A stretch of DNA of 63,113 nucleotides, filler included, from Stramenopiles sp. TOSAG23-6 (Eukaryota), in NCBI GenBank assembly GCA_900128565.1. It is 8 parts of 8 records of this genome, joined end to end, with 100 filler letters (N's around TTAATTAATTAA, not from the genome) between each part and the next. Parts side by side here need not be neighbours in the genome. Positions count along the whole stretch, not along the records: positions 15,837 to 23,640 come from LT636514.1; 7 more parts are not named here. The stretch is one strand, 5' to 3'. The notes beneath the pieces were generated by a model that worked only from the letters and a program-made list of their open reading frames with translations, searched no databases and was not told the DNA's origin. Position numbers and translations under genes: made by a program. Below, one piece after another: positions 1,566 through 37,598 of the stretch (its first letter is position 1; every line of letters begins with the position of its first letter).

Positions 1566-2309
1566 GTTAAAGAGTTCTTAGTTGTAAAACTGTTGTGTGA
1601 AATGTAAAAAAGATAAAAAACTTGAGTATGTGTGAGTACTGGAGGAGCAATAAAACATGGGAGGGAATCTCTTGAGTTTAGTAACGACAAAGCCTCCAAA
1701 AAGAAAACAAAACACGCCAAACAACACACTAAAGCATGTTCTATGAGCTGTGCGTTATGTATTTCTCATTGTTTATGGAGAGCATTGTTGTGGGAAGCAT
1801 TGTTATGAGAGAGAACTTACGTTAAAATGTCTGCTCAAAAGTAGTATGAAGTGAAGAAGTGAAGAAGTTCCCGCGTTGCAAAGATTCGTTTTCAAGTTTC
1901 AGACCCCTTCTTCATTTTTTTACCAATTCTGCTAGAGTTACAGGGGGAAAAATGAAGGGGTACTTATATTTTTGAATTTACATAAGTACGAAATTTGGAT
2001 ACGAAAATTTGAAATTTTTCGCTGCGTAAATTTAACGGCTGTACACGAAATCTTGGGAAAAGAATAAAATCCTGCACGAAATATTATTCGAAAATGGAAA
2101 ATTCTTTGGATAAGATAAACTCACTCGTCTCTCCAGACGAGAGACACAATTATACAGCCGCTCTCCATTTAAGTTATATAACCGGTTATTTTGCACTAAT
2201 TTCAAAAGTGTGCGGTGTTTTGAACGATAAAGTTATTACTCTCTACATAATTACATAGTAACAAGAAACTATCGGTACATTATATACCAGTGTATCAAGC
2301 CATTTATGG

Positions 2310-5300
2310 ATGATGATAAGAACTTATAATAGAATTCAACCCACGGTGGGTCGTTTTTCCTTGTCGATGTTTATAGCATGTGTTTTCGTGTGTTATTTCT
2401 CGACTTTTGTCTCTGGCGAGGAAGTTGGTGTCCAAATTCACAAAGGAACAAAAGATGGAGATGTACTGCATTCGCTAAACAACTTGGGGGAAGATACATT
2501 TCTATGTGATCCTGAAAATAATAAAAAAGATTGTCAGATATTAAAAGAATTATATTTTGCTACAAAAGGACAGAAATGGACTGGTGCAGCGAAAGACCTC
2601 GGTTTTGGTAAGGGGACTGATTTCTGTACGTGGAATGAGGACAAAATGCATCGTAGTGATTTTGACTATCAAAGTAAAATGGGAGTATTGTGTGACCCTG
2701 ACTCATCTAGTATCATATCTATACAACTGAATAATAGTAATTTAAGTGGATATCTTCCTGATAGTATCGGAGATCTTTTGCAGCTCCGAGTTCTATCTCT
2801 CCGTGGGAATACAATCTCTGGTGTACTACCCAAAACTTTAGCACAATTACAACTGTCTGTATTATTTCTTGACAATAACGAATTTGATGGAGCATTTCCA
2901 CCTGAGTTGTGTCCTTTAATTGATAGCCTTCGTTTCTGCCGTCTACAATCTGCAAACCTAAATCAAGATGGAAGATATAATATGTTCAACTGCCCAGTTC
3001 CATCTTGTCTAACATCTGGTATACTCTTTGACAAATGCAATGTAGTTGATTATAACAACTCATCATGCGGTGAAGGAAAATGTGACACCTCTGGTCAATG
3101 CCGTTGTTATATGGGCTGGTCAGGTAAGAAATGTGACGTTCCATATCTAGAAATTGGGTCTCTCGTAACCTTGGTCTTAATTTTAGCATGTTTCTTTTTA
3201 ATAGCAATGAAAAAATTTCGTGTTTGGTTTAAGTGTCGTAACTTGGCGCGTCTTCGAATGAATTCTGAGCTAATTACCCTCGACGAACCACTCCTTGATA
3301 ATTCAGGTGCAGAGCTTACAGGTTCGCTTATAAATGATGATAGTCAGTGGACGTGTCCTCTCTGTGCTCATGTCGTTAAATGGGATTGTGAAAGCAATCG
3401 TTTTCCTATTGATAACTGCCCAATGTGTGGTGGTCCTGGACCAGATGTTGAGTTACAACATCATGGTAGTAATGATGACGTGTCATCTACTGGACTGAAT
3501 ACTGGACGGTTGCAATTTTTGCGTTTTAGTCGTAAAAGAAATTTAAAGAAAACTTCACCATGGGCACCTGAGTTAGACAGACGAACTGGGACTATAAAAT
3601 GGAAGCGAAGTACTACTATAAAAAATAACAAAAAAAACACGACAGTGGAAGTAGAGAAAATGGAGTACCAACCTCCAAAAGATCCATCTTTATCTCAAAT
3701 TAAACCTTCTGGTGAATCTATTTCTGATCATTTGAATTCTGATCATTTGAATGCCATTTCTCCTCGGGTGTCTTTATCGAATGTATCAAATTCTACAGTT
3801 GAAGAACATGTTCAAAATGCATCTCTTTTTAAGGTAAAAGAAATTGCTGATGATGATACTCCTGGCGAATCCAAAATGGTGGATGGGGCTGCTCCTGACC
3901 CACCGACACTTATATCAAATCCATCATTGTCATCGAAGGGATGGGTAAGACAGTTGAATGCAAAAACAGGTGAAGTATCATTACGATCACTAGGTGATGG
4001 AAATGATGAATCCAAAGGGAAAAAAATTAGTCGAAAACTATTTAAGCTTTTACAACTTGTTTCGGCGCAACCTTTTCATACCAAATTACAGTGGTTTCGT
4101 AAACAAGTAGATAAATTGAGAATTCCAGAAGCTAAAGGCTCCATTGAATTCCAGGTGAGACGAGATTATTTATTGAATGACGCCGTGGATGGATTTGGTA
4201 AAATTAGTTTAACAAAAGACTTACATAAAACTTTTCGCTTCAAGTTTATTGGTGAACCAGCTGTTGATGCTGGTGGTGTGGCGAGGGAGTGGTTTGACCT
4301 TGTTGTTGGCTTACTATTCAATCCAGATTTTGGCTTATTTGAGTATACAAATGTATCAGGATTGTCATATCAAATTAATCGAGATTCTGGTTTAATGCAT
4401 GAAGAACATTTGAACTATTTTTTCGTTGCTGGGCAAGTTATTGGTAAGGCAATTCTAGACAGTATTCCAATACCTGCTCATCTTGCACCTCCTTTATTTA
4501 AGCATATTTTGGGCGTACCAATATCTATGGGTGATGTGTGTTATATGGACGAAGAAACTTATGACTCACTCACCTTGCTCAGAGAAAATCCTGGTGCGGA
4601 GGATGCTATGCTTGATTTTACCATTACTCGAATGGTTTTTGGTGAACCTGTAAATATTGATCTTAAACCGAATGGTTCTACTATAGATGTAACAGATGAG
4701 AACAAAGATGAATATTGTGAACTTGTGATTAAGTGTATTCTATTGGAGGACACGTCGTCACAACTTGGTCAATTATTGAAGGGTATTTATGCAGTTATTC
4801 CTCGAGAATTACTTTCTGTATTCGACCCAACAGAACTTGCAATGGTCCTTGCAGGTCTTCCACGAATTGATGTTGCTGATTGGGAAGCACATACAACTTA
4901 TGTAGAGCCTTTTGATAAAGAACACGAAGTTGTTCGGTGGTTTTGGAGTATCGTAGAAGACTTGAGCCATGAACAAAGAGCAAGAATGCTACAATTTACT
5001 ACAGGGTCGTCGAGAGTTCCTGTGACTGGGTTTGTTGCACTAAAATCACACAATGGAAAGTCTTGTTGTTTCACCATAGCACCATTGAAAGAGTCTGAGT
5101 CAGAGACGGAGGGCGAGACATCAGAGACTTCAAGAAGCAGCAGTACGTCGTGGATCCTTCGGCGACCCTCGTTAGCTTCTTTATTCTCTAGTCGATCAAA
5201 TAATTCCAGTAATAGTGAGTTAGAAAATGCAAATAATAATAGTAATTCCGTTATAGAATCTGAAGAAAAGGATAATGTAAATTCTTCGAGTAGTTCTCAA

Positions 5301-5432
5301 ATGAATCCATATCCTGTTGCTCACACATGTTTCAACCGGCTTGATCTACCAGTGTATCAAACACGAGAAGAATTAGAGACTAAAATATTAGAGATATTAG
5401 AAATGGATGTGACAGGTTTTAGTATTCAATAA
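2310..5432 (+). CDS. Membrane-anchored HECT E3 ubiquitin ligase with LRR and EGF ectodomain
   Basis: Hydrophobic N-terminus, plant-type LRRs (LSGYLPDSIGDL), EGF (CRCYMGWSGKKC), TM helix, WTCPLC..CPMC zinc finger, HECT motifs (DAGGVAREWF, LQFTTGSSRVP, AHTCFNRLDLP). Confidence 0.92.
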   Translation: MMIRTYNRIQPTVGRFSLSMFIACVFVCYFSTFVSGEEVGVQIHKGTKDGDVLHSLNNLGEDTFLCDPENNKKDCQILKELYFATKGQKWTGAAKDLGFGKGTDFCTWNEDKMHRSDFDYQSKMGVLCDPDSSSIISIQLNNSNLSGYLPDSIGDLLQLRVLSLRGNTISGVLPKTLAQLQLSVLFLDNNEFDGAFPPELCPLIDSLRFCRLQSANLNQDGRYNMFNCPVPSCLTSGILFDKCNVVDYNNSSCGEGKCDTSGQCRCYMGWSGKKCDVPYLEIGSLVTLVLILACFFLIAMKKFRVWFKCRNLARLRMNSELITLDEPLLDNSGAELTGSLINDDSQWTCPLCAHVVKWDCESNRFPIDNCPMCGGPGPDVELQHHGSNDDVSSTGLNTGRLQFLRFSRKRNLKKTSPWAPELDRRTGTIKWKRSTTIKNNKKNTTVEVEKMEYQPPKDPSLSQIKPSGESISDHLNSDHLNAISPRVSLSNVSNSTVEEHVQNASLFKVKEIADDDTPGESKMVDGAAPDPPTLISNPSLSSKGWVRQLNAKTGEVSLRSLGDGNDESKGKKISRKLFKLLQLVSAQPFHTKLQWFRKQVDKLRIPEAKGSIEFQVRRDYLLNDAVDGFGKISLTKDLHKTFRFKFIGEPAVDAGGVAREWFDLVVGLLFNPDFGLFEYTNVSGLSYQINRDSGLMHEEHLNYFFVAGQVIGKAILDSIPIPAHLAPPLFKHILGVPISMGDVCYMDEETYDSLTLLRENPGAEDAMLDFTITRMVFGEPVNIDLKPNGSTIDVTDENKDEYCELVIKCILLEDTSSQLGQLLKGIYAVIPRELLSVFDPTELAMVLAGLPRIDVADWEAHTTYVEPFDKEHEVVRWFWSIVEDLSHEQRARMLQFTTGSSRVPVTGFVALKSHNGKSCCFTIAPLKESESETEGETSETSRSSSTSWILRRPSLASLFSSRSNNSSNSELENANNNSNSVIESEEKDNVNSSSSSQMNPYPVAHTCFNRLDLPVYQTREELETKILEILEMDVTGFSIQ

Positions 5433-5588: not shown

Positions 5589-6533
5589 TTAACGTCCGGA
5601 AGGCCCAGAACGTTTCACATTACGTCCAGCACGCATAACTTCATCTACAAGAAGCAACTGTGATGCAATGACGGTACTCAACATTATGAAATGTCTTTTC
5701 ACTGTGTAATTATCCCAAATTCCCATATCCGCTGGTAGCATACCACCACCCCCATATACATCAAGTCCAACAGCATTGCCTGTCTTCTCATGTTCTTCCT
5801 GGAGTTCCAATATTGAATCCATAACATCAAATCCTGAGTTTTCTGCCAAAACTTTTGGAATAATTAACAATGCATCAGCAAATGCTTGTACGCCGAGCTT
5901 TGCTTTACCGGGTACATTTTTCTTAAACTCATTGACCAAATAGCTATGTGCGGCAATTTCAAACGAACCAGCGCCAGGAACAACACCCAAATCGTCTATG
6001 GCATTTTTCACTGCACGTGTACCATCACGAAGAGCATCCTTTAATTGGGCAATAGTGTGTGGATTTGGACCTCTAAGGAGAATCGTACAGGAAGTTGGAT
6101 TTTTAACACCTTCAATGAAACAATATTTACCTTCTCCAAGAGTCTCCTCATAAACGTGATCTGCATGACCAAGGCAATCTGGAGTAAGATCTTCAATACT
6201 GTTGACTTGACGACCACCACAAGCAAGCATAAGACGCTCCATATTACGCCTCTTTGCGCGGCGGAGTGCATAAATTCCTTCTTTGCAGAGCATGTCAAGT
6301 GACATTGGATCAACGCCCTTCTGATTGATAACAACAAACGATTTTCCAGATCCAGGAGGACAAACTTTGCGTTTTAACTCAAGAATGGCTTCTACCTTTT
6401 CGTCGGTGTATGTGCGCTCAGCGGCAACACACTTCTCGCGCTCTTCTGCATTCTTAAACATAAAAGTGGATTCAACATCAGTTTTCTCGTATTCCATAGA
6501 AATATTGGTAGTAAGAATAAAACAGTCACGAAG
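5589..6533 (-). CDS. CCT6: T-complex protein 1 subunit zeta, C-terminal exon only
   Basis: [42 protein letters not shown] motifs. Confidence 0.92.
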
Positions 6534-6630
6534 ATGTATTTTGGAAAAATATTTCAAAAAAATATTCGTTAGGTACAAAATTTCGTACGAAAAAAAATTT
6601 AGACAAAAAATTAAAAAAAATAAAACCTTC
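6534..6630 (-). mobile_element. Introner-like element, GA(?)-AT ends, joins kelch exon to CCT6 exon
   Basis: GAAGGTTTTATT...CGTACGAAATTTTGTACCTAAC...CCAAAATACAT. Confidence 0.75.
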
Positions 6631-7569
6631 ATGAATGTAAAGACTCAAATCGGCTGATCCAGCGACTGCAGCTGCGTGCCATGCACGTTTGGATGGTACA
6701 TCACCTAGTTCATTCCCTCCTCTAGTATCCGCATGTGTTTTAAATGACCATACTCTTGTTGTCAAATCCAATACTTGAACATCATTAAAGAAAATATCTT
6801 GAGCAAACATTCTATCCGGCCCTGCACCTCCAAATATAAGAAATCCATGACAATTTTTAACAGAGACAAAATTAGCCGTATGACCGCGACGTGCCGAAGG
6901 CGGCAAAAATGATGGAGGACCAACTTTAGTTTCAATAAAACGCCATTCTCTATCCATTACATTAAAGGCATAGAGATCTCCAAATATTTGACGTTTCGTT
7001 CCTGCTTTACCCGACTTATTGTATTCACCCTCACCTCCAAAAATCCATATTTCATTATTTGGCATTGATGTTAATGTATGTCCAGATCTAGGGGGTGGCA
7101 CATTATCTATCACATTAGATTTTTTCCACCCTTTATCAGGCACATCGACATCCATCATCCATAATTCATTTAATCGTCCACCATGAGACCCACCAATACC
7201 ACCAAATAAATACATCACATGACCAGCTATACCAAAAGCGAAACCTTCACGTATTTTCGGTGGTTGATGTTTGATTGATTGATACCTTGTCCATTTCTCA
7301 AGTGAATTTGGATCATTATTTACATTTTCTATTAATTGGTTCACTCCAGAGGATAGNNNNNNNNNNNNNNNNNNNNNNNNNNNNNNNNNNNNNNNNNNNN
7401 NNNNNNNNNNNNNNNNNNNNNNNNNNNNNNNNNNNNNNNNNNNNNNNNNNNNNNNNNNNNNNNNNNNNNNNNNNNNNNNNNNNNNNNNNTTTGCTTTAGC
7501 TATCTTCTCTATCTCATTAGAGCGGTAAATATTGTTTTTTGCCTCACCTTTCAAAAGTTTCCACGACAT
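6631..7569 (-). CDS. Kelch-repeat protein, N-terminal part (contains N gap)
   Basis: [38 protein letters not shown] repeats. Confidence 0.85.
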
Positions 7570-7823: not shown

Positions 7824-7923
7824 NNNNNNNNNNNNNNNNNNNNNNNNNNNNNNNNNNNNNNNNNNNNTTAATTAATTAANNNNNNNNNNNNNNNNNNNNN
7901 NNNNNNNNNNNNNNNNNNNNNNN
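7824..7923. other. Artificial contig spacer (also 15737-15836, 23641-23740, 31543-31642, 39439-39538, 47332-47431, 55224-55323)
   Basis: 100-nt N run with TTAATTAATTAA all-frame stop, every ~7.9 kb. Confidence 0.97.
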
Positions 7924-9787: not shown

Positions 9788-11358
9788 TTAAAGCATTCGA
9801 TCTAACATTGCCTTCATTTTCTCTTCTTTTTCTTTACACGAAATAATTTGTGCACGTAGTTGACAGATGGTGTCTTCTTTATTTGCTATAACTTTACGTA
9901 TACGAACATCAAGTTCTTCAAGTTCATAAATCCTTTTTTCGTTAATATCCTCAATCTCTTTAGCATGTTGTTCTTTAATGCTATCTATTGTCGTACTTGT
10001 ATTTATTTTTATAATCTTTTTCTGTTTCAATGAAGATGCAAGAGATTCTTTTAATTGATTTATACTATCCATTGCATCTTCTAAGCGCTTGGCTTGATTA
10101 GCTAATAACATTTTATTATCATTAAGTTCGACTTTGTTTCTTCTTCCCGTAATTTGATTTTTGTGTGTTCCTCCTGAGCTTTCCTTTCAGCTTCCACCAC
10201 ACGTTTTTTTTCTCGTTCAATCTCAAGCTGTGTTTGTTGTTCTACTAATTCTTGTCGCAGATTTTCAATTACTTTTTGCTGATGTTGTTTAATGTTTTTC
10301 TCTTTTCGCTGTTTGTTCTTTGTGTATTCTTCCTTTACAGTTCTTTCGGTTTCTACAATACGCTGTTTATCTTTTTCAATCTCAAGCTGTCTTTGTTTTT
10401 CTATTAATTCTTGTCGCAGATTTTCAATTACTTTTTGCTCCTGCTGTTTTCTTTCTTCCTCCTCCTGAACTTTTTGAGACTTCAAAGTCAAGAGTTGTAT
10501 TTTTTCTTTTTCACTCTCTGATTTCAGGTTTATACAGTTCGCGTGTATTCGGAGATCTTCTAAATGTTTTTTTTCTTCTACTACTTGTTCAATCAAACAA
10601 TTTGCTTCTATTTGAAGATCTTCTACATTTTTTTTCTTTACTTGTATCTCTATTTCTAAATCACTGAGCTCAGATTTCTTTACTGCGATTTCTTTAATAA
10701 GACATTCCTTATCGGCGTGTATTTGCTTTACTCCAATATCCTTATGACTTTCTTCAAAATATTCCTTATCCATCTTTCTTTCAGGATGAATAAAATTTAG
10801 CGTTGCTTCTGCTTCTCTTTGGAGGCGTTCATTTTCTATATACTTTTCTTGAAGCAGTTTTATATTTGCATCAATTTTTACTCTACCATTAGCAGTTTCA
10901 TAAGTATCTTGATTGTCTTTAGTCTTCAGATTATCTTTGTATTTAGATGAAACTGATATAGTACTTGGTGTATTCGCAATGATTGATGCTAACCTTGTTG
11001 ACTTTGCTGCAATTGTTGCAGTGGAGACTGATGGCTTATGAGGTTTTCTCTGTATTTTTTTTGATCTCATAACATACGAAATAAGAGATTCCGTTTTATC
11101 ATTAACCTCTTGAAGATGTTGTTGTGTCAGTTGAAGTTGACGCTGGGTTATTTGTTTGAAAGAAGGTTCGATTGGTACTTGTTTGAACGAGTGATCCTGT
11201 AATTTTACGTTATTGTACGACTCCTTCTCTATAGAACTCTGACATTTCTCATACATAGCACTAGCATTGTTACAAAGATGTATTTTTCTGTCTTTCTGTT
11301 TTTTTTTCAGAGAGTTGTGCGCTCGTTCAAGTTGCTTTAAACGTCTTTGTGACTGCAT
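9788..11358 (-). CDS. Coiled-coil protein with CEP131-like C-terminus, one frameshift near 10130
   Basis: Two overlapping ORFs; ELEELDVRIRKVIANKEDTICQLR resembles the CEP131 C-terminal motif (recalled, not searched). Confidence 0.5.
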
Positions 11359-13066: not shown

Positions 13067-15734
13067 TCACATTTTTCTGATATGATCTGGTGGTACTTGA
13101 GTTTCCTTATCACCATCACTATAGTTAATATCGTATGTACCATTACTATTACACTTTCCTATAGATGCTTCAAAGTAATCCTCGCCTCCTTGGTATCTTA
13201 CTGCAACAACATCACCAACACTGAAATTTTCTTGTTCTACCTCTGCACTTGTGGCATCTTGATCCATTGCGCGAACAAAATCAGCTGGAACATTTTGTTC
13301 CTTGTCCCCATCACTATAGTTTATATTGTAAGTACCATCAATATTACACTTTGCAATCGAACCTTCAAAATAGTCCTCCCCACCCTGATACCGCACTGCA
13401 ACAACATCACCAATACTAAATTGTGTATCATTGGTCGTACCCATTTTACCTACATTTGTATCACTAGATGAACCTACACTTACATGGCTTGATATCGCAC
13501 TAGCTGGTTCTGGAGATGTATTAGATTCTTCGGCGTCTTTACCAAATGGTCGTAAATATTCTTCAGGAACGTTATCTTCCGTATCACCGTCACTATAAGT
13601 AACAAAATAAGTACCATCAATATTACATTTTGAAATAATACCTTCAAAGAAATCTTGACCACCTTGAAACCTAGCTGCCACTGAATCGCCTTTTTTAAAT
13701 GCACCACGGTGTTCTTCTTTTTCGTGAAATACTGACGTAGATTGTGATGTTTTTACATCATTCGTTGCCGCAGAGTTTATGTCAAGTGAAGAATTTGAAG
13801 CAGTTGTAGTGGATGTCTGGTCATCTTCTACTACACTCCCATCTGCATTCATTAATCTAATGTTCTTCTCGAGTACCGATTTCTCTCTATCACCATCGCT
13901 ATATGTGACTCCGTAAGTGCCATCAATATTACACTTTGATATAGTACCTTCAAAGAAATCTTCTCCGCCTTGAAACCTTGCTGCAACTGAATCACCCACG
14001 GAAAAGGTAAAATTTTGTCTATCTGTTCTATTATTCTTATTTGGCGAAGTGAACGAATTTTCGCTATTCGTTTCATTAAGGTTGGGATTAGAACTAATAT
14101 TCTCCGGCTCGTCAGCTTTAATATCAGACATTTTACGTATAAAATCTTCCTGTACACTATTCTCTTTATCGCCATCACTATATGTAACAGAATATTTACC
14201 TACACCGGTTATTCCAGTAATTGATCCTTCAAACCAATCTTCTCCGCCTTGAAAACGTGCAGCAACTATATCGCCCACCACAAATTTCGCCGATTTTGCA
14301 AAGTTTTTGATATCAGCTTCCAATTTTTCTTTGGCTGCTTTTGCTTTTGCAATGCGTCTTTCTTCGGCTTCCTTTTGCTGTGCCGCTGCTTTTGCTTTTG
14401 CTATTTTTCTCTGCGCAGCTGCTTTTTCTTCTGCTATTTTCCTCTCTGCCGCTGCTTTTTCTTCGGCTACCCTTCTCTCCGAAGCTGCTTTTTCTTTAGC
14501 TATCTTTCTTTCTGCAGCTGCTTTTTCTTCTGCAATCTTTCTCTCGGCATCTTGATGTTCAGCACGTATATTCTCCCATTTTATCTTCACGCGTTGTACA
14601 CTTGAAATTGCTTCGTCTGCTGCCCTCTGCAAATCTGAAAGTTTCGTTTCGAATATCTCTTCGATGATCTGAAATACGTGCCAGGGCTGATTGAAGCAAT
14701 GTTCTAGCATTTGTGGTACAATTTTCAAACTCAACTCGAGAATTTTCTCCAACAGTCCTACCAATTAAAATATTACTATTTTGTGCAGTAGATACAATAG
14801 ATTCTAATTCTTTCTGTGAAGGCAATACCTTCTTCTGACTCATTTGATTCACTGTTTGTTGTAACCTCTGTTCTCTTTCGTGAAATTCCTTTTGTAATTG
14901 TTGTTTTCTTTTCTTCTCCTGTTTAATTAATTCTTCAACATGTCCAACAGCTTCTTTAGCTTCATTTAATACACGTTTGATCTGTTCACTTGTCATTTTT
15001 TGAGGCAATGCAAAGTCTACCTTCATCTCTGCTGCTTGTTTTGCTTCTCTAAGATTTTCATTAGCAGCAAGTAAAGCTTTCGAGATTTCTTCATTGCCTT
15101 CTAAGCCACTTTTAATCACTATTGACTGTAAATAGTCAACATTTTGATGGAGTGGATTAATATCGTCCTTCAATATTTGATTTCGAATTTCCTGTTCGTG
15201 TTGTACCCGTGCTGCTTGTTCCTGTACAGCTTTGGTCTTGTGTGTTGTTACTACATTACAACATTCTGTCACTTGCTTTGACGCGGCAATTACTGGTGCG
15301 GATAACAGTTGTAAAGTAGCACTGNNNNNNNNNNNNNNNNNNNNNNNNNNNNNNNNNNNNNNNNNNNNNNNNNNNNNNNNNNNNNNNNNNNNNNNNNNNN
15401 NNTGTCGAACGATTGCTGTTGCGGCTACGATAGCTGCATTCATACCTGCATGCTCACCAAATGTAGAATTGTGTTGTCTTACATCTGCTGATAAAACATC
15501 AAGGGTTTGTTTGGTTGATCTAATATCAAGTGATTCGACAAATTGTTTCGCCTGGGAAACCTTTTCTTTGGCTTCATCTGCTCTTACTTTTAATGTATGT
15601 AAAGCTGATGCAGTTGCAGAATCAGAACTCAAATAATCAGAGAGAGATGTTTGTCTTAATTCGCCACTGCCGACGCCACTAGTATCACCACAAAGTGTTT
15701 TTGCACGTGCTACTGATTCTGTTGCATGCTTCAA
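13067..15734 (-). CDS. Coiled-coil protein with five Tudor/Agenet-like repeats, 5'-incomplete, frameshift near 14670
   Basis: Five copies of F.VGD.VA.R(F/Y)QGGED.FEG.I..C..DGTY...YSDGD.E. Confidence 0.75.
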
Positions 15735-15883
15735 TGNNNNNNNNNNNNNNNNNNNNNNNNNNNNNNNNNNNNNNNNNNNNTTAATTAATTAANNNNNNNN
15801 NNNNNNNNNNNNNNNNNNNNNNNNNNNNNNNNNNNNAAAAAAAAAAAAAAAAAAATAGGGAAAAAATTTCCTATGAAAAAAAT

Positions 15884-15966: not shown

Positions 15967-18292
15967 AAATGTGCTTAAAAATGAATCACATAAATCTAAT
16001 GTTGTAGAGGATGATGAACACAATGATGTTAATAATTCAATGATTGTGCCAACAGTGCTACTTGGCCATTTATATGACAAGTCAATTGGATTATGAATGT
16101 GTTCCTATATTTGTAGAAAATATTTCAAAATTTAAAAAAATATTTTGTTAGGTACAAAATTTACTACGAAAAAAAAAATGAAAAAAAAATGAAAAAAAAA
16201 TTCCAAAATTTTTTTTAAACAAAAGATAAAAAAAGATAAAAAAAATATTCTTATTACAACACGTACCAACATTTTTGGTGTCATATGCCGGGGACACAAA
16301 ACTGTTTTCATAATTGAATATAAAATGTTTTGAACTCTTTCATCACTTTTTTCAATTTTTTCACTTTTTTCAATTTTTTCAATTTTTTCAATTTTTTCTT
16401 GATGTTGTCGACAAAATCGAACATGAATTATTTTTTCACGCCCATTACCGGGTATCAGCTGGTCAGGCACATTTTCTATAGTAAAACCTAGTAAAGATGC
16501 AATTTCTCTACTTATAGTAGGGTCATACGGTAATGTTTCAATAAGCATGTATTTTGGAAAAATATTTCAAAAAAAATCTAAAAAATTTCGTTAGGTACAA
16601 AATTTCGTACGAAAAAAAAAATTCGATTTTTTTGTAAAAAAAATAAAAAAATAAAAAAATAAAACATACATACTATCAAGACAATCAGCAACAGATAAAA
16701 TTTGTTCGGTAAAAATAAAAGGTTGAAATTGTTTTTTTTTTTTTTTTGAAATTTTTTTTTCTTCTTCTTTTGAAATTTTCGTTTTTTTTGGACTTTCTTG
16801 ATTAGGATTAGGGTTAGGGTTTTTTAATGCAGGTATGCATTTCATTACTAAATTCCACATCCCTACATAATCAATGACATTACTTGTATCAATAGCATGA
16901 TATCCATTACTTCCAGGTTGTTTTAAAGGAATTTCCATACAATGGTAAAAAAATATTTGAAAAAAAAATTCAGAATTTTTGTTAGGTACGAAATTTTTTT
17001 ACGAGATTTTTTTTACGAAAAAAAAAAAAAAAAAAAAAATGTAGGATAAAAAAATACATGCAATTACCAAATGTAAAAAAACAGCGTATTGTATTGTTTT
17101 TGACAGATTTTTGTAGACGAATAAATAATGGTGTCCAAACATTTTGAAGCGTTTTCGCAAATGAAGGTGAACCCACCATATTATCGATTGCATTGCTTGT
17201 ATTGGTTGTAGTAGAGTTAGGGTTAGGGTTAGGGTTAGGGTCGTCGAAAATTTCGTCACTAGTTAGTGATGCAAAAGCGCCAACAGGCCCTTGACATTCT
17301 AAATATATGGCATGCTGTTTGATCCCATCGATATCATCATTCGATATTTCAAAATTTTCAAAATTACATGTAGAAAGTATTGTGAAAAAATATTTCAAAA
17401 TTTACTATAAAAAAAAAATTTGTTAGGTATGAAATTTTTTTACGAAATTTTTTTACGAAAAAAAAAAATTTAAATTTGAAATTTAAATTTGAAATTCATA
17501 TAAAACGTACAACATCAAATAGAGTTGGGTTTATATACGTCACTGTAGTGTTTGTGAGGGAAGAGTCAACGGAGGAAACCCCATGTTTAAGCCAATCTAC
17601 AAGAAGATGTGATAAACGTCCATGACCTGCACTTTGGTCTGAGAGTCTTTTTGCACGTACATAAATTATGAAAAAATATTTCGAAAAAAAAAATCTAAAA
17701 AAAATTGTTAGGTACAAAATTTCGTACGAAAAAAAAAATCAAAAAAAAAAAATTCAAAATTGAAATGAAAACGAACTTGTAATAATTTTTTTGTGTTTGT
17801 TTGTACAGATTTCAAAGATAAAATCGTACGCCATGCAATCCAATGTTGTTTCATAGCACTTAATGTCTTTTTATCTGTTCGAATCCATGAAGGGATTTGT
17901 TCAATTAATTGACACAAGGTTTTAAAAAGTTGAGAAAAAGTTTCTTCATTGAGCAAGACATCACTCCAAATAGCTGTTGCATATTGTATACTCAACTCTC
18001 CTTCAGATGCCAAGGTGATCAGTACCACATTTCGTGCAAGGGCAATCGAATTTAAGTCATTGAAATGTAGTTCAACTCGTGCTTCTGATGGAATATTTAT
18101 CAAAGTGGTGAGAGGGTTTCGTATATCACCAACTCCAATCCAAAGCAATTTGATGGGTGTTGCGTTACATAAACTTTGTACTTCTTCTTTTGTTAGCAAG
18201 CTGCGAGCAAATGTATTTCCAATAAGAAAGCCACTCATCACACTATCGACAAGCTTACGTCGTGCAAGACTAAATGGTTTAGAGTACACCAT
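15967..18292 (-). CDS. DUF4470-like domain protein, multi-exon, 3'-incomplete; exons 18292-17777, 17660-17511, 17374-17058, 16936-16670, 16546-16267, 16104-15967
   Basis: LLWIGVGDIRN..LHFNDLNSIALARNVVL motif; all five complete element excisions keep the frame open. Confidence 0.7.
16105..16266 (-). mobile_element. Introner-like intron, GT-AG
   Basis: GTACGT...GTACCTAAC...CAAATATAG; phase-0 in-frame join. Confidence 0.75.
16547..16669 (-). mobile_element. Introner-like intron, GT-AT
   Basis: Full consensus; join reads CLDS-M-LIETLP. Confidence 0.85.
16937..17057 (-). mobile_element. Introner-like intron, GT-AT
   Basis: Core TACGAAA/GTACCTAAC; join reads FGNC-M-EIPLK. Confidence 0.75.
17375..17510 (-). 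mobile_element. Introner-like intron, GT-TT
   Basis: TT|GTACGT...CACAATACTT; join reads LFDV-STCNF. Confidence 0.75.
17661..17776 (-). mobile_element. Introner-like intron, GT-AT
   Basis: AA|GTTCGT...CATAATTTAT; join reads KLLQ-VRAKRL. Confidence 0.8.
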
Positions 18293-18561
18293 CACTCGAA
18301 ATAGCGTACTGTGGCAAGTACTCTAAAAGTAGTACTTAGTAGTAGTACTTTAAAAGTAGTAGTAAACGTCGTAGTAAACGCCAAGAAGACTTCAGAAGTT
18401 CAGAACTTTTTGGAGAACACCACGATAGTACCTGGTAACCTTGAATCTTAACTTCGCTGACTCTAAATTTTAGACACGTGTTCGTTGTGTTGTTGTTCTT
18501 TGCACGACTTGTTGTTGTTCGTCTTGTGATTGATTTTTCATACTAATCAAAACAATACAAT

Positions 18562-19282
18562 ATGGTACGTGACACTTCAACACATGTGGGAGGTTGTCAT
18601 CCATGATATTTGGATGACAACCTCCCACGTAGTTATATTTCGCTTTTATTTACTATCCCTATCCCACTTCGCCTTTCGTTAGTGTTACACGAACCCTAGT
18701 GTTACACTAACGTCATGGTTGAGACCGTTGTGCGATTGAACTTCCTTCGGGAAGCTTTCCTCATCGAGTATATGTGGCTAAATCATTTATTCACCATCAC
18801 AAACCCTTTATATATACCCAAATATACATGCTTTAATTGTAAAGGAAGGCGAGTTTCAGCACATTCTCCGTGTTATGAACACTAATCTTAACGGTAAGGA
18901 GAAAATCATGTATGCTCTGACAGCTATCAAAGGCATTGGTCGTCGTTTTTCCAACTTAATTCTTAAAAAAGCTGAGATTGACCTCAACAAACGTGCTGGT
19001 ATGATGTCTCAAGAAGAGATCGAAAAAATCGTAGCTATTATTGAAGATCCTCTTCGTTTTAAGATCCCAAAATGGTTCTTGAACAAACAGAAGGATCCTG
19101 TTACTGGTAAATGGACTCAACTACATGCTCAAGGTGTTGCTGGTGGTCTTCGTGAAGACATTGAACGTCTCAAGAAGATCCGCTCTCACCGTGGTCTCCG
19201 TCATTACTGGGGACTTACTGTTCGTGGTCAACATACAAAGACAACTGGGCGTAAGGGCAAATCTGTAGGAAAGAAAAACTAA
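18562..19282 (+). CDS. RPS18: 40S ribosomal protein S18 (uS13); exons 18562-18564 and 18830-19282
   Basis: [49 protein letters not shown]. Confidence 0.96.
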
Positions 19283-19565
19283 AGTAGCCTAACCCTAACC
19301 CTAACCCTAATGTCGAAATTAGTGAATTTGAAACATGTCAGGACTCGATTTTTTAATATTTTTGAGTTAATTATATAGCGTGAATTCAGTTCTATATCTT
19401 AGTTTGTTGATTGTCATAATCAAGTTAGAATTCTTAGAATTGTATTTAAAATATTGAATAAAAACCAGTATGAAAAAATATTTTGTAACCTTAACCCTAA
19501 GTACTATCGAATTGAAAAAAAAACACTTAAAATTGAATATACAATTTTATCTACTTAATTTTTTT

Positions 19566-22500
19566 TTACTCTTCAAAAGTTGTACATTGACTAAATTGAC
19601 TGATAAAAGAAATATGACTTAAATCACTCAAATGATCATTATGCAGTTGCTCATTTCTATCAATAAAACATGAAGTAATAAAATCTCTAATAATTTTGAT
19701 ACTCTTTAAAAGTTCAAATAATTCAGTGATTTCATTAGGGTTAGGGTTATTAGGGTTAGGGCTATTATTTCCATTATTTTCAATGCATTTTGAAGAATTC
19801 GTATTTAATTTCGTACCAATTTGTTGAAGAATTTCACCCCATAATTGTAGAACATACGAAATCTCAACTGAATGATCAAAAATTTCATCATTTGTTGTTG
19901 TACACGAATTATTTTGTGTTTTTTGTGTTTTTTTTGTTTTTTTTGTTTTTTGTGTATTTCGTGTTTTTTGTGTCTTTTGTTGTTTTTTGAATTGATTCAA
20001 TGCAGAGTTTGATGTTTTTTTAGAATCATTGGAATTATACTTCTTTTTATTAGGAGTTTTTATACGAATAGGAAGAGATTTTATATCCAAATTATTCTTT
20101 TGAAATATTGTACCATTAGGGTTAGGGTTAGGGTGTAATGAGTGATTTTCATTTTTTTCTAATGTTTGCCATTCCTTCTTAAAAACATCAGGATCTTGTT
20201 TTTGAAGTGAAATAATATCATCCTCAACTTGTCTATATTCTTTAATCAATCCATTGGATATTGAATTCCAATGAGATTGCATTTGACTCATTTGAAGTGA
20301 ACGATGACGAAATAATCTACTTTCATGTATTTGGGAAAAATATTTCAAAAAAAATTTTGAAAATTTGTTAGGTACAAAATTACGTACGAAAAAAAAATTC
20401 GATTTTTTTGTTAAAAAAAAAAATAAAACATACAGCAAGAATTTGTGAAATGATAATATTTCGTGCAACTTGCAAAGAATATTGACTTGACTCAGTTCCA
20501 TCTTTACTTTTCATACTAGTGTTTTGATATGATATTGAATTGTTAGGGTTGGGGTTAGGGCTATAATTTTTTTTTTTTCCATCATTTTTTGTATCATTTT
20601 TTAAATCATTTTTTGTATTATTTTTTGTATCATTTTTCAAATCATTTTTTAAATCATTTTTTAAATCTTTTGTTAATTCAGAAAATGAAAACTTGACATG
20701 AGGGAAACGACCTATATTTTGGAAAAATATTTCAAAAAAAAATCTAAAAAAAATTGTTAGGTACAAAATTTACTATAAAAACCAAAAACCAAAAACCAAA
20801 AAAAAAAAAATCGAATTTGAAAAAAAATTGAAAAAAAATAAAACAAACTTGTGAATTTTTTTTCCAAGACTATAGAGGACAAATAAGAAAAAAGCATATA
20901 CATTTTTTTTTCAATATCTATTTTTTGTTTTAATCCATTTTTCAAGAATACCAAATGCTTTGGGAGTATACCATCAGCTACTAATGTTTTTAAAGATTTT
21001 TGAGCGACGCGGTTGAAACTGCTAATTTGGAATTTATCTGTACATGTATTGTGAAAAATATTTTTTTTTTAATAAAATTTGTTAGGTACGAAATTTCGTA
21101 CGAAAAAAAAATAAATTCGAAATTGAAAAAAATAAAACGTACATGCAAGTGCCCCAAAATGTTGCCAACTTTTCATGATTACAAAAGAAGGGAGGATAAC
21201 AAATAAAATAGACACCATAATTGATTGAATGGCAATACTTCTTTGAATCCAAATAGCCTGGCGATCAGGTTTGCTACTATTTAAATGGTAGCCTAAAACA
21301 CAACTTTCTACTAATCCGGCAACTGTATTGTGAAAAATTAAAAAAAAAAAATATCGTTAGGTACAAAATTTCGTATGAAAAAAAAAATAGGTAAAAAAAT
21401 TCATGATGAAAACGAACCTGAACCACCTAAAATTAAGAAAAATGAAACATTATCAATAAATGGTTGTACCTTTTCTTGTGAAGCCATAACTTGAGGATCT
21501 GTGCCCAAACAAACTCCTAGAATGACAAATAAATGATGTAACCAAGCATCTAGAGGTAGTTCTGGAATACTCGCCAATTCCCAAATCATGACGGCCATAA
21601 TATTGTCACGGGCAAAAATCCAAGCCCGCATAGCAACTGCATCTGTGAGTGACATGCCAGCTTCTTCACATGTCATTGCAGTGTGTTTGTTTAAAAGGAC
21701 CATGTTGGATTTTTTTATATTAAATTTACCGAATAATCCACGTTCCAAGTCGACTTGAGGAGCTACTAAAAATGCGATTTGCACGAAACATGAAGCTCTG
21801 ACAATAATTTTCACACAGAAGCCTACTAATTTTCTTCGTTTTAGATGAGTAAATTTCCCCCACAAAGCACCAAATACAGAAGGAACAACAATGTCTTTGA
21901 GCAAAACACAAGAGATTAACACTTCCAGCAGGCAAAAAACGAACACTGTCTGTGTGGAGCCTCCAATACAACCTTGGAAGAGAAACACCTTTGTGAGGTC
22001 ACCAGTGTAAACATAACCCGGAAACAAAACGACAAACAATGGTTTCCAAATGAGCAACACTACAGCAATGGATGCTGGAATGGATTTATATATATTTTTT
22101 GATTTAAAAAATTTGTTAGGTACAAAATTTTCCATTTTCTTAGTAAAAACAATTTGGAAATCAAAATGAAAATGTACAGGATGGTGTCTTTGAAAGCACT
22201 TCCGAATTTCCTTGTTGTTTTACCTCCCCCAAATGATTATCTTTATCATCAATATGGCTATCATCTCGTTTACCGTCTATTTCAATATCATCAATATCTT
22301 GAATAGATTTATCTGCACGATTTTCATTCGTATCTTTAGGGTTAGGGTTAGGATTATCTGTACCTTCCTCGTTATTTTCCTGACTACTTCTATTATCTTC
22401 TTCATATTCACCATTTTTATTTGGCCGTAAATGAGCTTGAAATACTTCACCAGGACCAATGTTTTGTGAAAAAAATTGTTTTTTTTTAAATTGGTTAGAT

Positions 22501-23640: not shown

Positions 23641-24612
23641 NNNNNNNNNNNNNNNNNNNNNNNNNNNNNNNNNNNNNNNNNNNNTTAATTAATTAANNNN
23701 NNNNNNNNNNNNNNNNNNNNNNNNNNNNNNNNNNNNNNNNTCAATTGCAGATGACTAGTATAAATGCAATTGGTTGGGGTTTTCAGTGTTCTTTACGTAC
23801 GAACAAATGGATGAATTCGAGTTAGATTATCGGTAGATTTGATTAAAATATATCGAGTTAGTATGTATATTCAGAATTGAGTAATGAATGTACAGAGAAA
23901 TGGAGAGTGTACGGGATGTTGGTATGTAGTATATTCTATGTCAGGTGGCCTTACTGATAAGTGTTATACGACAATTCAAGTAGAGAAAATAGAGAGAGCA
24001 GTATTTAACTTTGAGAAACTAAGTAAATAGTGAAGTGATTTTATTGTAAGATAGAAATAAAGCTGTTATAAACCTTGTCACGTGATATTAATAGCAAAGT
24101 AGAACATTCTGCTCCATTCAATGAATGTAGTTGTATATATTCTATACAGAACTTTGTTGTGTTTAGTGTCGAGGTGTAGTAGCAAACTTTACAAGTATAA
24201 TAGTAGTTGTTGTTAGTGTTGGCCGTTAAGAATGTTAACCGTTTTCGGCACTTTTTCTTAATCGAGTGTAGTCTCAGACAAACACGAAATCTTGGAACTC
24301 GTAAATAAAGTGAACCATTTTGAAGTGGTTCACATTTTTGTAAGCACGAAATCTTGGAAATCTGAGCTACGCCAAATGTTTTTTGTGGAACTAACCTGTT
24401 TTGATGAGAAAGCAAAAAAAGAATTTCTTTTTTTTTTGAATTTGAATTTGAAATTTTTCCCTATTTCAAACTTTTCTCCAAACACTCTAGACGCAGGCGA
24501 ATATTATCTACGAGATAATCCTGGGAAAGATATATTTCTACTAAAAGGACATAGTAATATTAAAAGTATCAAATCACGAAGCTCATCTATTGAATAAGAG
24601 ACTCTACATAGA

Positions 24613-27062: not shown

Positions 27063-29174
27063 TTATTTAGAAATGTCCCATCTTCCATCTCCAGTTAGTG
27101 TCAGTACAGTATCAAATAGTTCGACGATATTCTTCTGGTGTGAAATCGCAATTACGGAAATATTAGGATCATTACAAACATGCTTATACACTTCTGTACC
27201 AAAGTCAGACGGACATGCATTAACAATCTCATCAAGAAGTAGTATTTGAGCTGATTCTATATTGAATTTCATTCGAGCAATACAGAGACGTTGTTGCTCT
27301 CCACGTGACATGTGTGTACACAAACCTGTAGAATCCAATACTGATTTCAGTGATGGTTTCACATCATCATTATGAACCTTTTCATATACAACACGATTTA
27401 ACCAATCAGAAAGTCCAACAGAACGTAATAATTGCATACACTTTTCATCAGTTTCATCATCATATTTTGCTAGAGTAGGATACGAAATATTATCACGAAG
27501 AGTAGCAAATCCACCATCTAAAATATAAGGAGTCTGGGGTAAGCAAAAACATGCATTCGATCCTGGAGGAGGTATATATATTACTCCGTGTGACGGTTTT
27601 GTAATTCCGCGTAATACACGTATTATAGTTGACTTACCTGTACCGTTTGCACCTCTTATTAAAAGATTTTGACCCTTGCTCAATGAAAAAGATATATTCT
27701 CTACTAGAATATTTTTTGTATTTTGATCTGACTTTTTTGCCAAATTACTATTCGAATTAATATCAGATTGTATACTAGTTCCACCTGTACTGGCCGTAGT
27801 AGTATCAGATACTTCATTAGTCATTGAAGCAATAGATGGAGGATAAATACTCACATGATCCATTTTTACAACTGCATCAGTATTAGATTCTTTGTATATT
27901 GCCGATGAATCAGTCGTATTCAACAAACCAACTCGTGAATTCTCAAGAGCATTCATTAATGATGATTGAGTCTCTAGTAATGACTTAACTACACCCATTC
28001 TACGAAGGCCTCCAGCAAAATTTTTTAAAGCCATTCCAACATGCACTAATTCGTGTAAAACGCCGAGGAAATATTCAGTAGCCGCCTGTTGATTAACCGC
28101 AGATAGAGGTTCCACAGATGTATGCAATGCGGGTGCCATACACTGAACAGCAGCAACAATAACAAGGTAACGTAAGAAATAATTGCTGATACAATCACCA
28201 ATAAAACATTGATTTAAAAGACTTCTTTTTGCCTCCAAACATGCATCAAATGTACGTTTCAATATTCTTTTTTCAGTTTTACCACCACCGAGTAAATCAA
28301 ACTCTTCGGCATGTTGCATTAATTGAAAATGCTGTGATTTAAATTCATCTTCGCGTGCTTCAGATGTTGAACTTCCAGATTTAATGCAAGGGACAATCTT
28401 CCGTGTCCAAATGCCAAGACCAAAAGCAACACCATAGAATTTAGCCAATTCAGAAGCACCCATCTGAGAAGCAAGAACATATGTTAACCCTACAACTTCC
28501 AAAAGTGGTTTTACAAAATCCAAAAACAGCTCCGATAATTCAGACGAAAGCTTAATTGCGCCACTTGTCAGACATGCATCAGGAAATTGTACAACGCTTT
28601 TAACTTTTACAAGAGAGCAGCGACCAGAGACTGGATCTTCAACGCTTTTCCAAGTGACATCTACACCTTCAGAGTTGTTCACTGCACTGGTGAGCAATTT
28701 TTGAGATTTGTTAACTAGTCTTTCTCGGATGGATAGAGACAGAGAGTCTCTCAAAAATNATATCGCAGAGTTTATGGCAGCTGCTGGTATACAAAGTAAG
28801 GCAAAACGAATCTGGTTGTCAAGAAGGCCAGACCAATCGCGGGCCACAAGACAAGCTCCAAGAGTACCGGTCATTCTAGAAACTTTCACAGACACATAAA
28901 GACGAGCACAAAGTCCAAGAGTAAGAACACTTGCAATTAACGAAGACGTTGAATAGCGAGGCCATACAATAGATAAAAGCTGCCAACGGCGTTGCTTGAT
29001 TTCAAGTTCCTTTTCATTTTTTTCTTCAACCTTTTTCTTTCGCAAACGGCGCGCACGTGACTTTTCTACAACAGCGAACAAGGAAGCTGAGACAAAAACC
29101 GATCCACATAGTGCAACAAGCATGGTACCATGCCTCTTTGCCATGATGCCCCGAAGGGTAGAGAATACATTCAT
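27063..29174 (-). CDS. ABC transporter subfamily D (peroxisomal-type) half transporter
   Basis: TM domain, Walker A GANGTGKS, LPQTPY, MSRGEQQRL signature, LLLDE Walker B. Confidence 0.88.
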   Translation of the reverse strand: MNVFSTLRGIMAKRHGTMLVALCGSVFVSASLFAVVEKSRARRLRKKKVEEKNEKELEIKQRRWQLLSIVWPRYSTSSLIASVLTLGLCARLYVSVKVSRMTGTLGACLVARDWSGLLDNQIRFALLCIPAAAINSAIXFLRDSLSLSIRERLVNKSQKLLTSAVNNSEGVDVTWKSVEDPVSGRCSLVKVKSVVQFPDACLTSGAIKLSSELSELFLDFVKPLLEVVGLTYVLASQMGASELAKFYGVAFGLGIWTRKIVPCIKSGSSTSEAREDEFKSQHFQLMQHAEEFDLLGGGKTEKRILKRTFDACLEAKRSLLNQCFIGDCISNYFLRYLVIVAAVQCMAPALHTSVEPLSAVNQQAATEYFLGVLHELVHVGMALKNFAGGLRRMGVVKSLLETQSSLMNALENSRVGLLNTTDSSAIYKESNTDAVVKMDHVSIYPPSIASMTNEVSDTTTASTGGTSIQSDINSNSNLAKKSDQNTKNILVENISFSLSKGQNLLIRGANGTGKSTIIRVLRGITKPSHGVIYIPPPGSNACFCLPQTPYILDGGFATLRDNISYPTLAKYDDETDEKCMQLLRSVGLSDWLNRVVYEKVHNDDVKPSLKSVLDSTGLCTHMSRGEQQRLCIARMKFNIESAQILLLDEIVNACPSDFGTEVYKHVCNDPNISVIAISHQKNIVELFDTVLTLTGDGRWDISK

Positions 29175-29441
29175 GGTTAATTTGGCTGGTCAAAAAAGTG
29201 CGGTTTGCTCAATCCAGCCTCAATCCATGGCCATTTCATTTTTTTGACATTTTTTGTGTTCTTCTTCTTGATTCATGAACACGTGTCATTCGCATTCCTG
29301 AACCAATTTCAGCAGTCAGTTCAAGTTCTTGGTACCACAAGTAGTAGGTAGTAGACTAGAGACTTTCATTTGGATGACTATATTTGATTGATTTAGTATT
29401 GCACAACAATTTTGTAATTTGAAACGTCAACAAGTTTTATA

Positions 29442-30386
29442 ATGTCGCAATCTGTCCCTATGCGTATTGCAAAAGTAATTGCACGTTCTGGGCTATGTAG
29501 TCGTCGTGGTGCTGAAGACCTCATTAAAGCTCGTCGTGTTTGCCTAAACGGTGTTGTCATTTCTGAGCCAGGAATTGTGGTGAGTGAAAAGGATAATGTA
29601 ATGGTTGATAATAATCCACTTCGACGTACTGGTCCTACAAAGGTATGGGCAGTTCATAAGCTAAAGGGTGAATTAGTTACACGTAACGACCCTCAAGGTC
29701 GTCCAACAGTAGAGGATCGTTTTAAAAAAATGGGTGTTCCTGATAATCTTATGGCTATTGGTAGGTTGGATTACAATACTGAAGGTCTCCTTTTACATAC
29801 AAATGATGGTGACTTGTCGAGATATCTTGAACTTCCAAGTAATGGAATACGTAGACGATATTTATGCTTAGTTAAAGGAACTGTACAGCAACCATGGCTT
29901 AGGTCACTGAAGCGAAAAGGAGGAAGTACCTTTGGAGGTCAAAGATATCGACCAATTGATGCAAAAATTTTGCGTAAGGATGGGCCTACGCGTACATGGA
30001 TAGATATTACATTGACAGAAGGAAAAAATCGAGAAATTAGAAGAATTATGAAGGCAATGAAGTTAGATGTTAAACAGCTCATTCGCATTGAATATGGCCC
30101 ATATAAACTTGGTGAATTACCTCCTGGAGCTGCCATGCAAGTTCCATTAAAATTTGAAGCTCCTTCTGGTCCCAATGGTGTTAAAAGTTATAGTAAGGGA
30201 TGGAATAGTGCTTGGCAAGGCTTTGGTATTCAGAAAAGTCTCAAAAACCGGAAGAATAAAAAGAACGAATTGAATGCCAAAATGCGAAATGCTTTAAGAA
30301 ATAAAGCAACAGTTGCAGCAAGAAAGTCTCTTCCACATAGTTCTTGTTATCAAGCTGCTGTTGATGTCGTCTCTAGTGATTCATAA
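29442..30386 (+). CDS. RsuA/RluB-family pseudouridine synthase with S4 domain
   Basis: RIAKVIARSGLCSRRGAE, IGRLDYNTEGLLL, LTEGKNREIRRI. Confidence 0.92.
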   Translation: MSQSVPMRIAKVIARSGLCSRRGAEDLIKARRVCLNGVVISEPGIVVSEKDNVMVDNNPLRRTGPTKVWAVHKLKGELVTRNDPQGRPTVEDRFKKMGVPDNLMAIGRLDYNTEGLLLHTNDGDLSRYLELPSNGIRRRYLCLVKGTVQQPWLRSLKRKGGSTFGGQRYRPIDAKILRKDGPTRTWIDITLTEGKNREIRRIMKAMKLDVKQLIRIEYGPYKLGELPPGAAMQVPLKFEAPSGPNGVKSYSKGWNSAWQGFGIQKSLKNRKNKKNELNAKMRNALRNKATVAARKSLPHSSCYQAAVDVVSSDS

Positions 30387-31542: not shown

Positions 31543-31701
31543 NNNNNNNNNNNNNNNNNNNNNNNNNNNNNNNNNNNNNNNNNNNNTTAATTAATTAANN
31601 NNNNNNNNNNNNNNNNNNNNNNNNNNNNNNNNNNNNNNNNNNCGTTAGGTACGAAATTTCGTATGAAAAAAAATTAAATTAGAAATTCATATGAAACGTA
31701 C

Positions 31702-33428: not shown

Positions 33429-33736
33429 TATTGTTCCGCACGAAAAAATAATAAAATAATAAAATAATTATTTTTTTAAAAAATAATAAAATAATAATGC
33501 TCCAAAAAAGCAAATTATTATTATTTTATTAGGGTTAGGGTTAATTATTATTATTTCATTAGGGTTAGGGTTAATTTTATAAAAAAATGAAAATCAAGTT
33601 TACTTTATTCGGTCAAAAACCTGTAAAAAATATTATTTTATTCACAATAATAATTATTATTGTGAATAATTATTATATTCAATAATAATTATTATTATTT
33701 TTCGTTTCTAAAAAATAATAAAATAGCGGATCAATA
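33429..33736. mobile_element. hAT-like MITE, 308 bp
   Basis: TIR TATTGTTCCGC / GCGGATCAATA (10/11) flanked by exact 8-bp duplication GTCTTTTG (33421-33428, 33737-33744). Confidence 0.8.
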
Positions 33737-35124: not shown

Positions 35125-35217
35125 AATTTCATGGTATGTAAGCTATTCGTTTTATTGAAAAATAAACATTTTATTTCAACATCCTCTTTGAAACAAAGCA
35201 TAAATAAACATTTTATT

Positions 35218-37245: not shown

Positions 37246-37598
37246 GAAAAGTTTTAAAAAGGTACTTCTTTTTTTCGTAGATTTTTTTATCGAATGTATT
37301 GACTCGAAAAACAAACAAACCTGTTGCTGCTGGTCAATGTGACATNTCATCAACATCATAATGTCATTATATGTCACAACAACAAACAATTATCAAAAAC
37401 ACAAACAAACAACAACAATAATTTTCAAAATATTTATTGTTCAATGACAAATTCAAAGCTTTTAATTATTTACATGACATTGTGGCAGGGATTTAAGTAT
37501 ATCGGTGGTATTAAAAAAGNAATAACGCATACTTTTGAATGTTAGGTNTTTATTACAATCTCAAATCTTAAAAAAATCNATAGCTCTTTTTTTANTCA

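Follow-up and report, generated by a model that had tools for sequence, protein, structure and literature searches.

A putative GT..AT intron at a conserved position in the uS13 (RPS18) gene of a stramenopile

The uS13 gene and its surroundings

The window analyzed here is the whole 63,113-nucleotide stretch of DNA, filler included, from Stramenopiles sp. TOSAG23-6, in which the features collected in Table 1 were located. The translation of exon 2 gave 4122 matches to uS13/RPS18 at E <= 1e-3, and PF00416 was found on the 120 matches listed. The 150-codon frame is intact and retains all of the columns that are conserved among its relatives; judged by homology, the gene is uS13 (RPS18) of a stramenopile-like protist. 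It lies in a stop-to-stop frame open from 18782 to 19282, with an in-frame TAA just upstream (18779-18781), and between 18782 and the internal Met this frame has no in-frame ATG. The closest relative, P0121 (~90% identity), is known only from VKEGEF... onward and is therefore uninformative on the junction discussed below. P0001 is another relative at ~90%. The closest named record is P0038 (source label GSMAST32.ASY1.ANO1.664.1, EukProt CDS), which is identical over all 113 of its residues. This public model (18908-19282) starts at the internal Met of ...IMYALTAIK and drops eleven conserved codons (33 nt, GT..AG). Because the omitted codons begin with GT and end with AG, the automated model seems to have removed an intron that does not exist while missing the real one.

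Table 1. Features of the uS13 locus and other genes predicted in the window
Feature	Coordinates	Strand	Basis
Exon 1, coding part: initiator ATG alone	18562..18564	+	Sole ATG in 18323-18564; GTACGT follows
Putative phase-0 GT..AT intron between Met1 and Ala2, 265 nt, GTACGT...ATACAT	18565..18829	+	Frame logic; intron end in 6/9 other uS13 loci
Donor GTACGT	18565..18570	+	Same hexamer in many element donors
Perfect 20-bp hairpin, function unassigned; arms 18584-18603 and 18611-18630	18584..18630	+	Folding
CTAAC, candidate branch-point-like motif, 119 nt before 3' end	18707..18711	+	Motif search
CTAAA, weaker branch-point-like candidate, 48 nt before 3' end	18778..18782	+	Motif search
3' terminal motif CCAAATATACAT, ends in CAT; resembles element end CCAAAATACAT	18818..18829	+	Comparison with elements
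Exon 2: uS13/RPS18 codons 2-151 and stop TAA 19280-19282	18830..19282	+	PF00416, homology
In-frame AAG, canonical rival acceptor, would give MEGEFQ...	18842..18844	+	Sequence
HECT ubiquitin ligase	2262-5429	+	Pfam
XRN 5'-3' exonuclease	47434-50394	-	Pfam
ABC transporter (ABC_membrane_2)	27066-28757	-	Pfam
Pseudouridine synthase with S4 domain	29418-30383	+	Pfam
Protein kinase; G+C locally higher (0.45)	40050-41804	+	Pfam

Linkers consisting of 44 N, TTAATTAATTAA and 44 N occur every ~7.9 kb (7824-7923, 15737-15836, 23641-23740, 31543-31642, 39439-39538, 47332-47431 and 55224-55323), and both sides of the last of these repeat the same ~40 nt of one copy of the short element described below (T10 versus T11). 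The window thus looks stitched from overlapping pieces and not like one continuous assembly. Many single Ns are present in 34394-39417. Telomere-like CCCTAA repeats of 2-4 units gave 18 matches at ~12 places in the window, versus 0 expected (examples are at 19288-19310, 17217-17240, 19735-19761, 20116-20133 and 33529-33570); one lies 5 nt after the uS13 stop codon, and several fall in long open frames and are translated there as PNPNPN. On the - strand, 5592-7356 encodes the C-terminal half of CCT-zeta (PDB chain residues 223-527), which starts right after the 3' end of an element. Its N-terminal half is missing, with a Kelch-repeat ORF upstream in its place; this arrangement is probably a mis-join at an element copy. 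Apart from the uS13 intron, no old, non-element intron was found in the window: regions of overlapping frames at ~14562-14764, 10105-10186 and 41759-41804 were without intron signals, and donors lacking the element core would need homology to be read as introns.

Boundaries and position of the uS13 intron

The initial annotation had described an ATG at 18562-18564 followed by GTACGT (18565-18570), an intron of 265 nt, and a uS13 frame that resumes at 18830. The sequence agrees with this description base for base: the putative intron spans 18565-18829, and the codon run GCT TTA ATT GTA AAG GAA GGC GAG TTT CAG CAC begins at 18830, directly after AAATATACAT (18820-18829). Over the 240 bases leading up to the gene, the + strand has no ATG besides the initiator. 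The GTACGT that follows this ATG conforms to the local donor consensus. Two further points of the annotation were reproduced. The local ATG at 18828-18830 is out of frame, reading ATG CTT TAA, and the last upstream AG (18767-18768) is likewise out of frame; this AG is in addition upstream of the in-frame TAA. AG dinucleotides within 18700-18860 start at 18722, 18753, 18767, 18843, 18847, 18852 and 18858, and none is found between 18768 and 18843. Given these positions, no AG acceptor is possible between the in-frame stop and codon 2, and the boundary set by homology and conserved position reads CAT^GCT (^ marks a splice boundary) in place of an AG.

When the ATG is joined to GCT, the predicted protein begins MALIVK and aligns with the N-termini of P0002 and P0003, the nearest full-length relatives among the matches listed (72-73% identity), which begin MALVV.... 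An FQHILR-like motif is present in 118 of the 120 matches listed, and in 101 of these 118 it is preceded by a tripeptide of the form [SA][LV][VIL]. Four codons encoding [AS]L[IV][VIL] are expected by chance at 2.6e-4 of all window positions and frames; among random 12-mers with the composition of the intron, the rate is 6.3e-4. ATACAT, the hexamer with which the putative intron ends, has a frequency of 6.8e-4 per position in the window. The ALIV-type match and ATACAT meet at one base, and the conserved position of the intron, a third independent line of evidence, marks the same base.

This third line comes from a comparison of intron position and ends in other taxa, which the initial annotation had proposed and which was carried out by a metagenome scan. 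Twelve uS13 loci were found, all at <=66% identity, and nine of them reach the N-terminus; L008, L011 and L012 were left out, as their matches stop short. AG stands directly before codon 2 in six of the nine (L002, L004, L006, L007, L009 and L010: tag^GCG, tag^GCC, cag^GCT, aag^TCT, cag^TCT and cag^TCT), and in these six there is no in-frame ATG directly upstream of codon 2. ATG^GT is located upstream of codon 2 at 95 nt in L002, 53 nt in L004 and 52 nt in L006; the upstream sequence of L007 and L009 is too short to contain it, and in L010 it is found only >2 kb away. The ATG is contiguous with the coding sequence in L001, L003 and L005. P0124, which belongs to the same 90% cluster as P0002, reads MVSFYPQ^ALVVGDEF; from the protein sequence alone, its N-terminus looks like an ORF call that reads through an intron end at the same place. 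Since an intron ends at codon 2 in six of nine other eukaryotic loci, the position is ancient. In the window the same arrangement is seen, with ATG at 18562 and GCT at 18830 separated by 265 nt. The phase-0 intron at this position has the form ATG^GT...AG^codon 2 in L002, L004 and L006, and its acceptor alone is visible in L007, L009 and L010; elsewhere it ends in TAG, CAG or AAG, versus CAT here. By this comparison, the predicted intron of the window has AT where the orthologous introns of other eukaryotes have AG.

A canonical acceptor is nonetheless available 15 nt downstream. The intron could be of the GT-AG type and end at the in-frame AAG (18842-18844) or at the GAG at 18851-18853, yielding a protein that begins MEGEFQ... 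or MFQ..., in which case ALIVK would be what remains of an acceptor since lost; use of both sites is a further possibility. The sequence AAG^GAA is in frame, and its use would join ATG^GAAGGCGAG. Short uS13 N-termini may exist among relatives, as 17 of the 118 motif-bearing matches listed are without the N-terminal tripeptide and eight of these 17 have just four residues before FQHILR (for example MTPEFQ...), although at least one of these short forms, P0016, is a truncated version of the longer P0011. Against a downstream acceptor, ALIV fits the MALVV of the nearest relatives at the low chance frequencies given above, and the conserved intron position is before codon 2. Moreover, the AAG site carries a purine at -3, in a context (TTAATTGTAAAG) that does not resemble the ATAYAG of the AG-ending element ends, whereas the CAT^ at 18829 is upstream of the AAG and carries the terminal hexamer of the element family. 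We therefore regard the use of AAG or GAG as unlikely.

The uS13 intron is thus probably a GT..AT intron extending from 18565 to 18829, with a predicted product ATG^GCTTTAATT, that is, ...CAATACAATATG joined to GCTTTAATTGTAAAGG. Nine YAT sites are present in 18770-18829, so YAT by itself cannot define the acceptor. Two of them, ending at 18790 and 18811, likewise keep the frame, and it is therefore homology and position that single out 18829. The first base of the intron and the first base of exon 2 are both G; as a result, removal of TA..TG (18566-18830) yields an mRNA identical to that obtained by removal of GT..AT (18565-18829), and the cut is not fixed to the base by the sequence. An AT-AC intron at 18562-18827 was also considered and was rejected, because it gives ATG CTT TAA and the other frame of exon 1 has no ATG before the TGA at 18531-18533.

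AT-ended elements in the window and the uS13 intron

Copies of a short element of ~100-160 nt, several dozen in all, occur in the window and have the general form [AT]^GTAYGTTTTAT...CGTACGAAATTTTGTACCTAAC...GAAATATTTTTCCAAAATACAT^, where CGTACGAAATTTTGTACCTAAC is the core. The consensus of the 3' end is CCAAAATACAT, and ATACAT is the commonest last hexamer. CCTAAC is found 34-55 nt from this end, the termini are inverted (ATGTAT...ATACAT), and there is an AT direct repeat. An automatic scan for joined reading frames covered 17 copies, of which one at the window edge was set aside and 16 were scored. In 11 of the 16 copies the joined frames were longest at offset 0, where removal runs exactly from GT through the terminal A[T/G] (the probability of at least 11 of 16 at p = 1/3 is 0.004); two further copies agree if their donor is taken to have been placed 4 nt too far upstream, and three did not agree.

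A hand-picked set of 26 GT donors of elements was also examined. For 13 of these there is an in-phase terminal AT (ATACAT, ATATAT, ACACAT, ATCTAT or ATTTAT), after which the frame stays open for at least 150 nt; for four an AG is in phase, at or near the same register (ATACAG, ATATAG twice, TTCCAG); and nine, for example those abutting N runs or short exons, gave no assignment. The AT and AG ends seem to be interchangeable at this site. The 13 AT-ending copies are 90-123 nt long. Most of them have AT on the exon side, so that an AT-AC rereading is possible for them, but three have other 5' flanks, at 20433 (ct), 17776 (aa) and 44846 (gt), and for those three such a rereading is impossible. Internal TTTTAG sites, 12-16 nt after CCTAAC, are not the acceptors, since they leave just 19-109 nt open. 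From this frame logic, the element family behaves as introns with YA[T/G] ends. In the CCT-zeta exon, the match to solved structures starts at ORF residue 36-38, and residue 38 is the one encoded directly after ...AAAATACAT^; because the 5' half of the gene is missing, it is usable for its acceptor only. AG-ended copies in the same or a nearby register are located on the - strand at 31101-31011, 21417-21323, 20848-20712 and 16266-16105, where the ends are ATACAG, ATATAG, or a CCAG that arises within CCAAAATACAT.

The initial annotation placed the uS13 intron outside this family. That placement is right as to the body and origin of the intron. Its 3' signal is the exception, as the last ~12 nt, CCAAATATACAT, resemble CCAAAATACAT. 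The absence of the core was borne out: CGTACGAAATTTTGTACCTAAC does not occur in 18565-18829, and the nearest core matches, at 17718 and 20378, flank the intron. Local alignments of the intron to six element copies scored 14-20, versus shuffle means of 16.8-17.6 and maxima of 25-30. With no core and no significant alignment, the idea that the uS13 intron is itself an element copy was rejected. The intron also differs from the elements in its length of 265 nt and in its flank, which is the TG of ATG where most elements have AT. Its sole CTAAC is 119 nt from the 3' end and CTAAA is at 48 nt, versus CCTAAC at 34-55 nt in the elements. What the two have in common is a GTAYGT donor, a terminal ATACAT with its CAT acceptor, and a possible pairing of GUA with UAC at -5..-3. 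Since its position is common to other eukaryotes, the uS13 intron is not a recent insertion, and its position predates the family.

The element copies also bear on whether the terminal T is genuine. T 18829 might be a base-call or amplification error for G, the true end being CAG, or the locus might be a pseudogene whose acceptor has mutated, the functional copy being elsewhere. A single T-for-G error at this base would restore CAG, and the window does have signs of imperfect assembly in its scattered single Ns, its linkers and the likely mis-join. The 150-codon frame is intact, however, with 72-73% identity to relatives and with conserved columns all kept; AT ends are systematic, with 13 element introns in the window alone; and it is the whole hexamer ATACAT, beyond the last base, that matches the end of the family. 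An artefact or a dead copy is for these reasons quite improbable.

Minor-type introns tolerate varied 3' dinucleotides, and their U12 consensus consists of the donor [AG]TATCCTT and a branch site, TCCTTRAY, ~10-20 nt from the 3' end. Parts of a splice-site survey (PMC1557818) and of a Physarum preprint (10.1101/2020.10.12.336362) use the term GT-AT, which is applied to rare U12-type introns. The uS13 intron could accordingly belong to a rare GT-AT subtype removed by the minor spliceosome, and it has the same terminal dinucleotides. The U12 donor and branch consensus are absent here, though: the donor (GTACGTGAC, GTACGTGA) does not match [AG]TATCCTT even at one mismatch, and the sole TCCTTRAY-like site at one mismatch, at 18600, falls within the hairpin, 229 nt before the intron ends. 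In the elements, both the GTAYGT donor and CCTAAC are major-type in appearance. Of all the readings considered, we give least credence to a U12-type intron. With GTAYGT donors and CCTAAC that look major-type and no U12 consensus, removal by the major-type spliceosome is the most economical reading.

The fold of the whole uS13 intron has a z-score of -6.7, to which belongs a hairpin (18584-18630) with a perfect 20-bp stem and a 7-nt loop, whose arms occur nowhere else in the window. A scan of the whole window against Rfam at gathering level gave zero matches. A known RNA or snoRNA within the intron was rejected as a candidate, since Rfam gave only sub-threshold, miRNA-precursor-like matches to the hairpin (13-26 bits versus thresholds of at least 53).

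Structure-guided excision has been proposed for the introners of Amoebophrya and for euglenid nonconventional introns. In such a scheme, paired intron ends would define the cuts and excision would not be classically spliceosomal. In the MFE structure of the uS13 intron, GUA at the 5' end pairs with UAC at -5..-3; the elements could pair in the same way (GTAT...ATAC) through their inverted termini. The uS13 helix is just 3 bp, though, and the exon flanks differ (ATG^ in uS13, AT^ in the elements), so that the uS13 intron and the elements have no common extended helix. Further points against this scheme are that the donors are perfect major-type hexamers, that AG-ending copies use the same register, and that the intron position is common to ordinary GT-AG introns elsewhere. 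Excision guided by structure alone is accordingly very unlikely for the uS13 intron.

Known systems and a proposed mechanism

Few signals in eukaryotic genes are as constant as the AG at the 3' end of introns. To our knowledge, only a few lineages or intron classes relax it, namely tunicates, Amoebophrya, euglenids and minor-type introns, and each is informative on how the spliceosome chooses its sites. For the tunicate Fritillaria borealis, a review describes introns that derive from MITEs and are for the most part AG-AC or AG-AT, with those at conserved positions still GT-AG (PMC11282704); the non-canonical introns of this tunicate are also treated in a second paper (PMC13326754). The stramenopile would resemble it in having a spliceosome that accepts a 3' AT, in a genome invaded by short inverted-repeat elements (PMC11282704, PMC13326754). 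The difference is in the 5' end, which is AG in Fritillaria and GT here, and in the introns at conserved positions, which are GT-AG in Fritillaria whereas the predicted one here ends in AT (PMC11282704).

The introners of Amoebophrya, according to PMC7789003, are short repeated introns that carry both inverted and direct repeats and have no clear signature in their terminal dinucleotides; their boundaries are ambiguous because a short direct repeat spans the introner junction. The element family of the window is similar in having an AT direct repeat and ATGTAT/ATACAT termini, but it differs from those introners in its uniform GTAYGT donor and YA[T/G] end. The uS13 intron differs further, in that no direct repeat allows another reading, save a 1-nt G.

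A literature search returned nothing on introners or AT-ending introns in MAST stramenopiles; supplementary splice-site tables were outside its scope. In a paper on single-cell genomes of uncultured stramenopiles (PMC5778133), "intron" occurs only in the methods, and "splice", "canonical" and "non-canonical" are absent; in a paper on a cultured MAST-3 species (PMC12614181), "intron", "splice" and "splicing" are absent. Supplements may hold such tables. From the known cases of relaxed 3' dinucleotides, the present one would differ in its canonical donor, in a change of the last base only, and in the extension of AT to the conserved-position intron of a ribosomal protein gene.

The initial annotation had proposed that an essential gene uses an AT acceptor through the splicing machinery of the host. 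This proposal gains support, of a sequence-based kind, from the match to MALVV, from the six of nine loci with an intron end at codon 2, and from the non-element nature of the intron. An old intron of an essential gene that apparently has an AT acceptor points to the host splicing machinery. We suggest that the spliceosome removes the uS13 intron by means of the same 3' signal, ...CCAAA(A)TACAT^, as it would use for the introner copies. The spliceosome would be of the major type, and its second step, exon ligation, would accept U besides G at the last base of the intron, giving YA[G/U] acceptors in a favorable context. That context probably includes the pairing of the 5' GUA with UAC at -5..-3; for the branch point, the motifs of Table 1 are candidates.

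For the genome as a whole, we lean towards a model in which the major spliceosome of this MAST-3-like stramenopile accepts U at the last intron base throughout the genome. Under such relaxation, the ancient uS13 intron could have drifted from CAG to CAT harmlessly, and a mobile element with GT...AC ends, duplicating AT as it inserts, could have spread as ready-made GT..AT introns, or could itself have brought the relaxation about. Such genes are mis-modeled by gene finders that insist on GT-AG, P0038 being an example, and throughout the genome of this organism models based on that rule are likely to be wrong. If the model is true, a stramenopile with uniform GT..AT introns would be an independent and unusually clean case of relaxation at the 3' end of introns.
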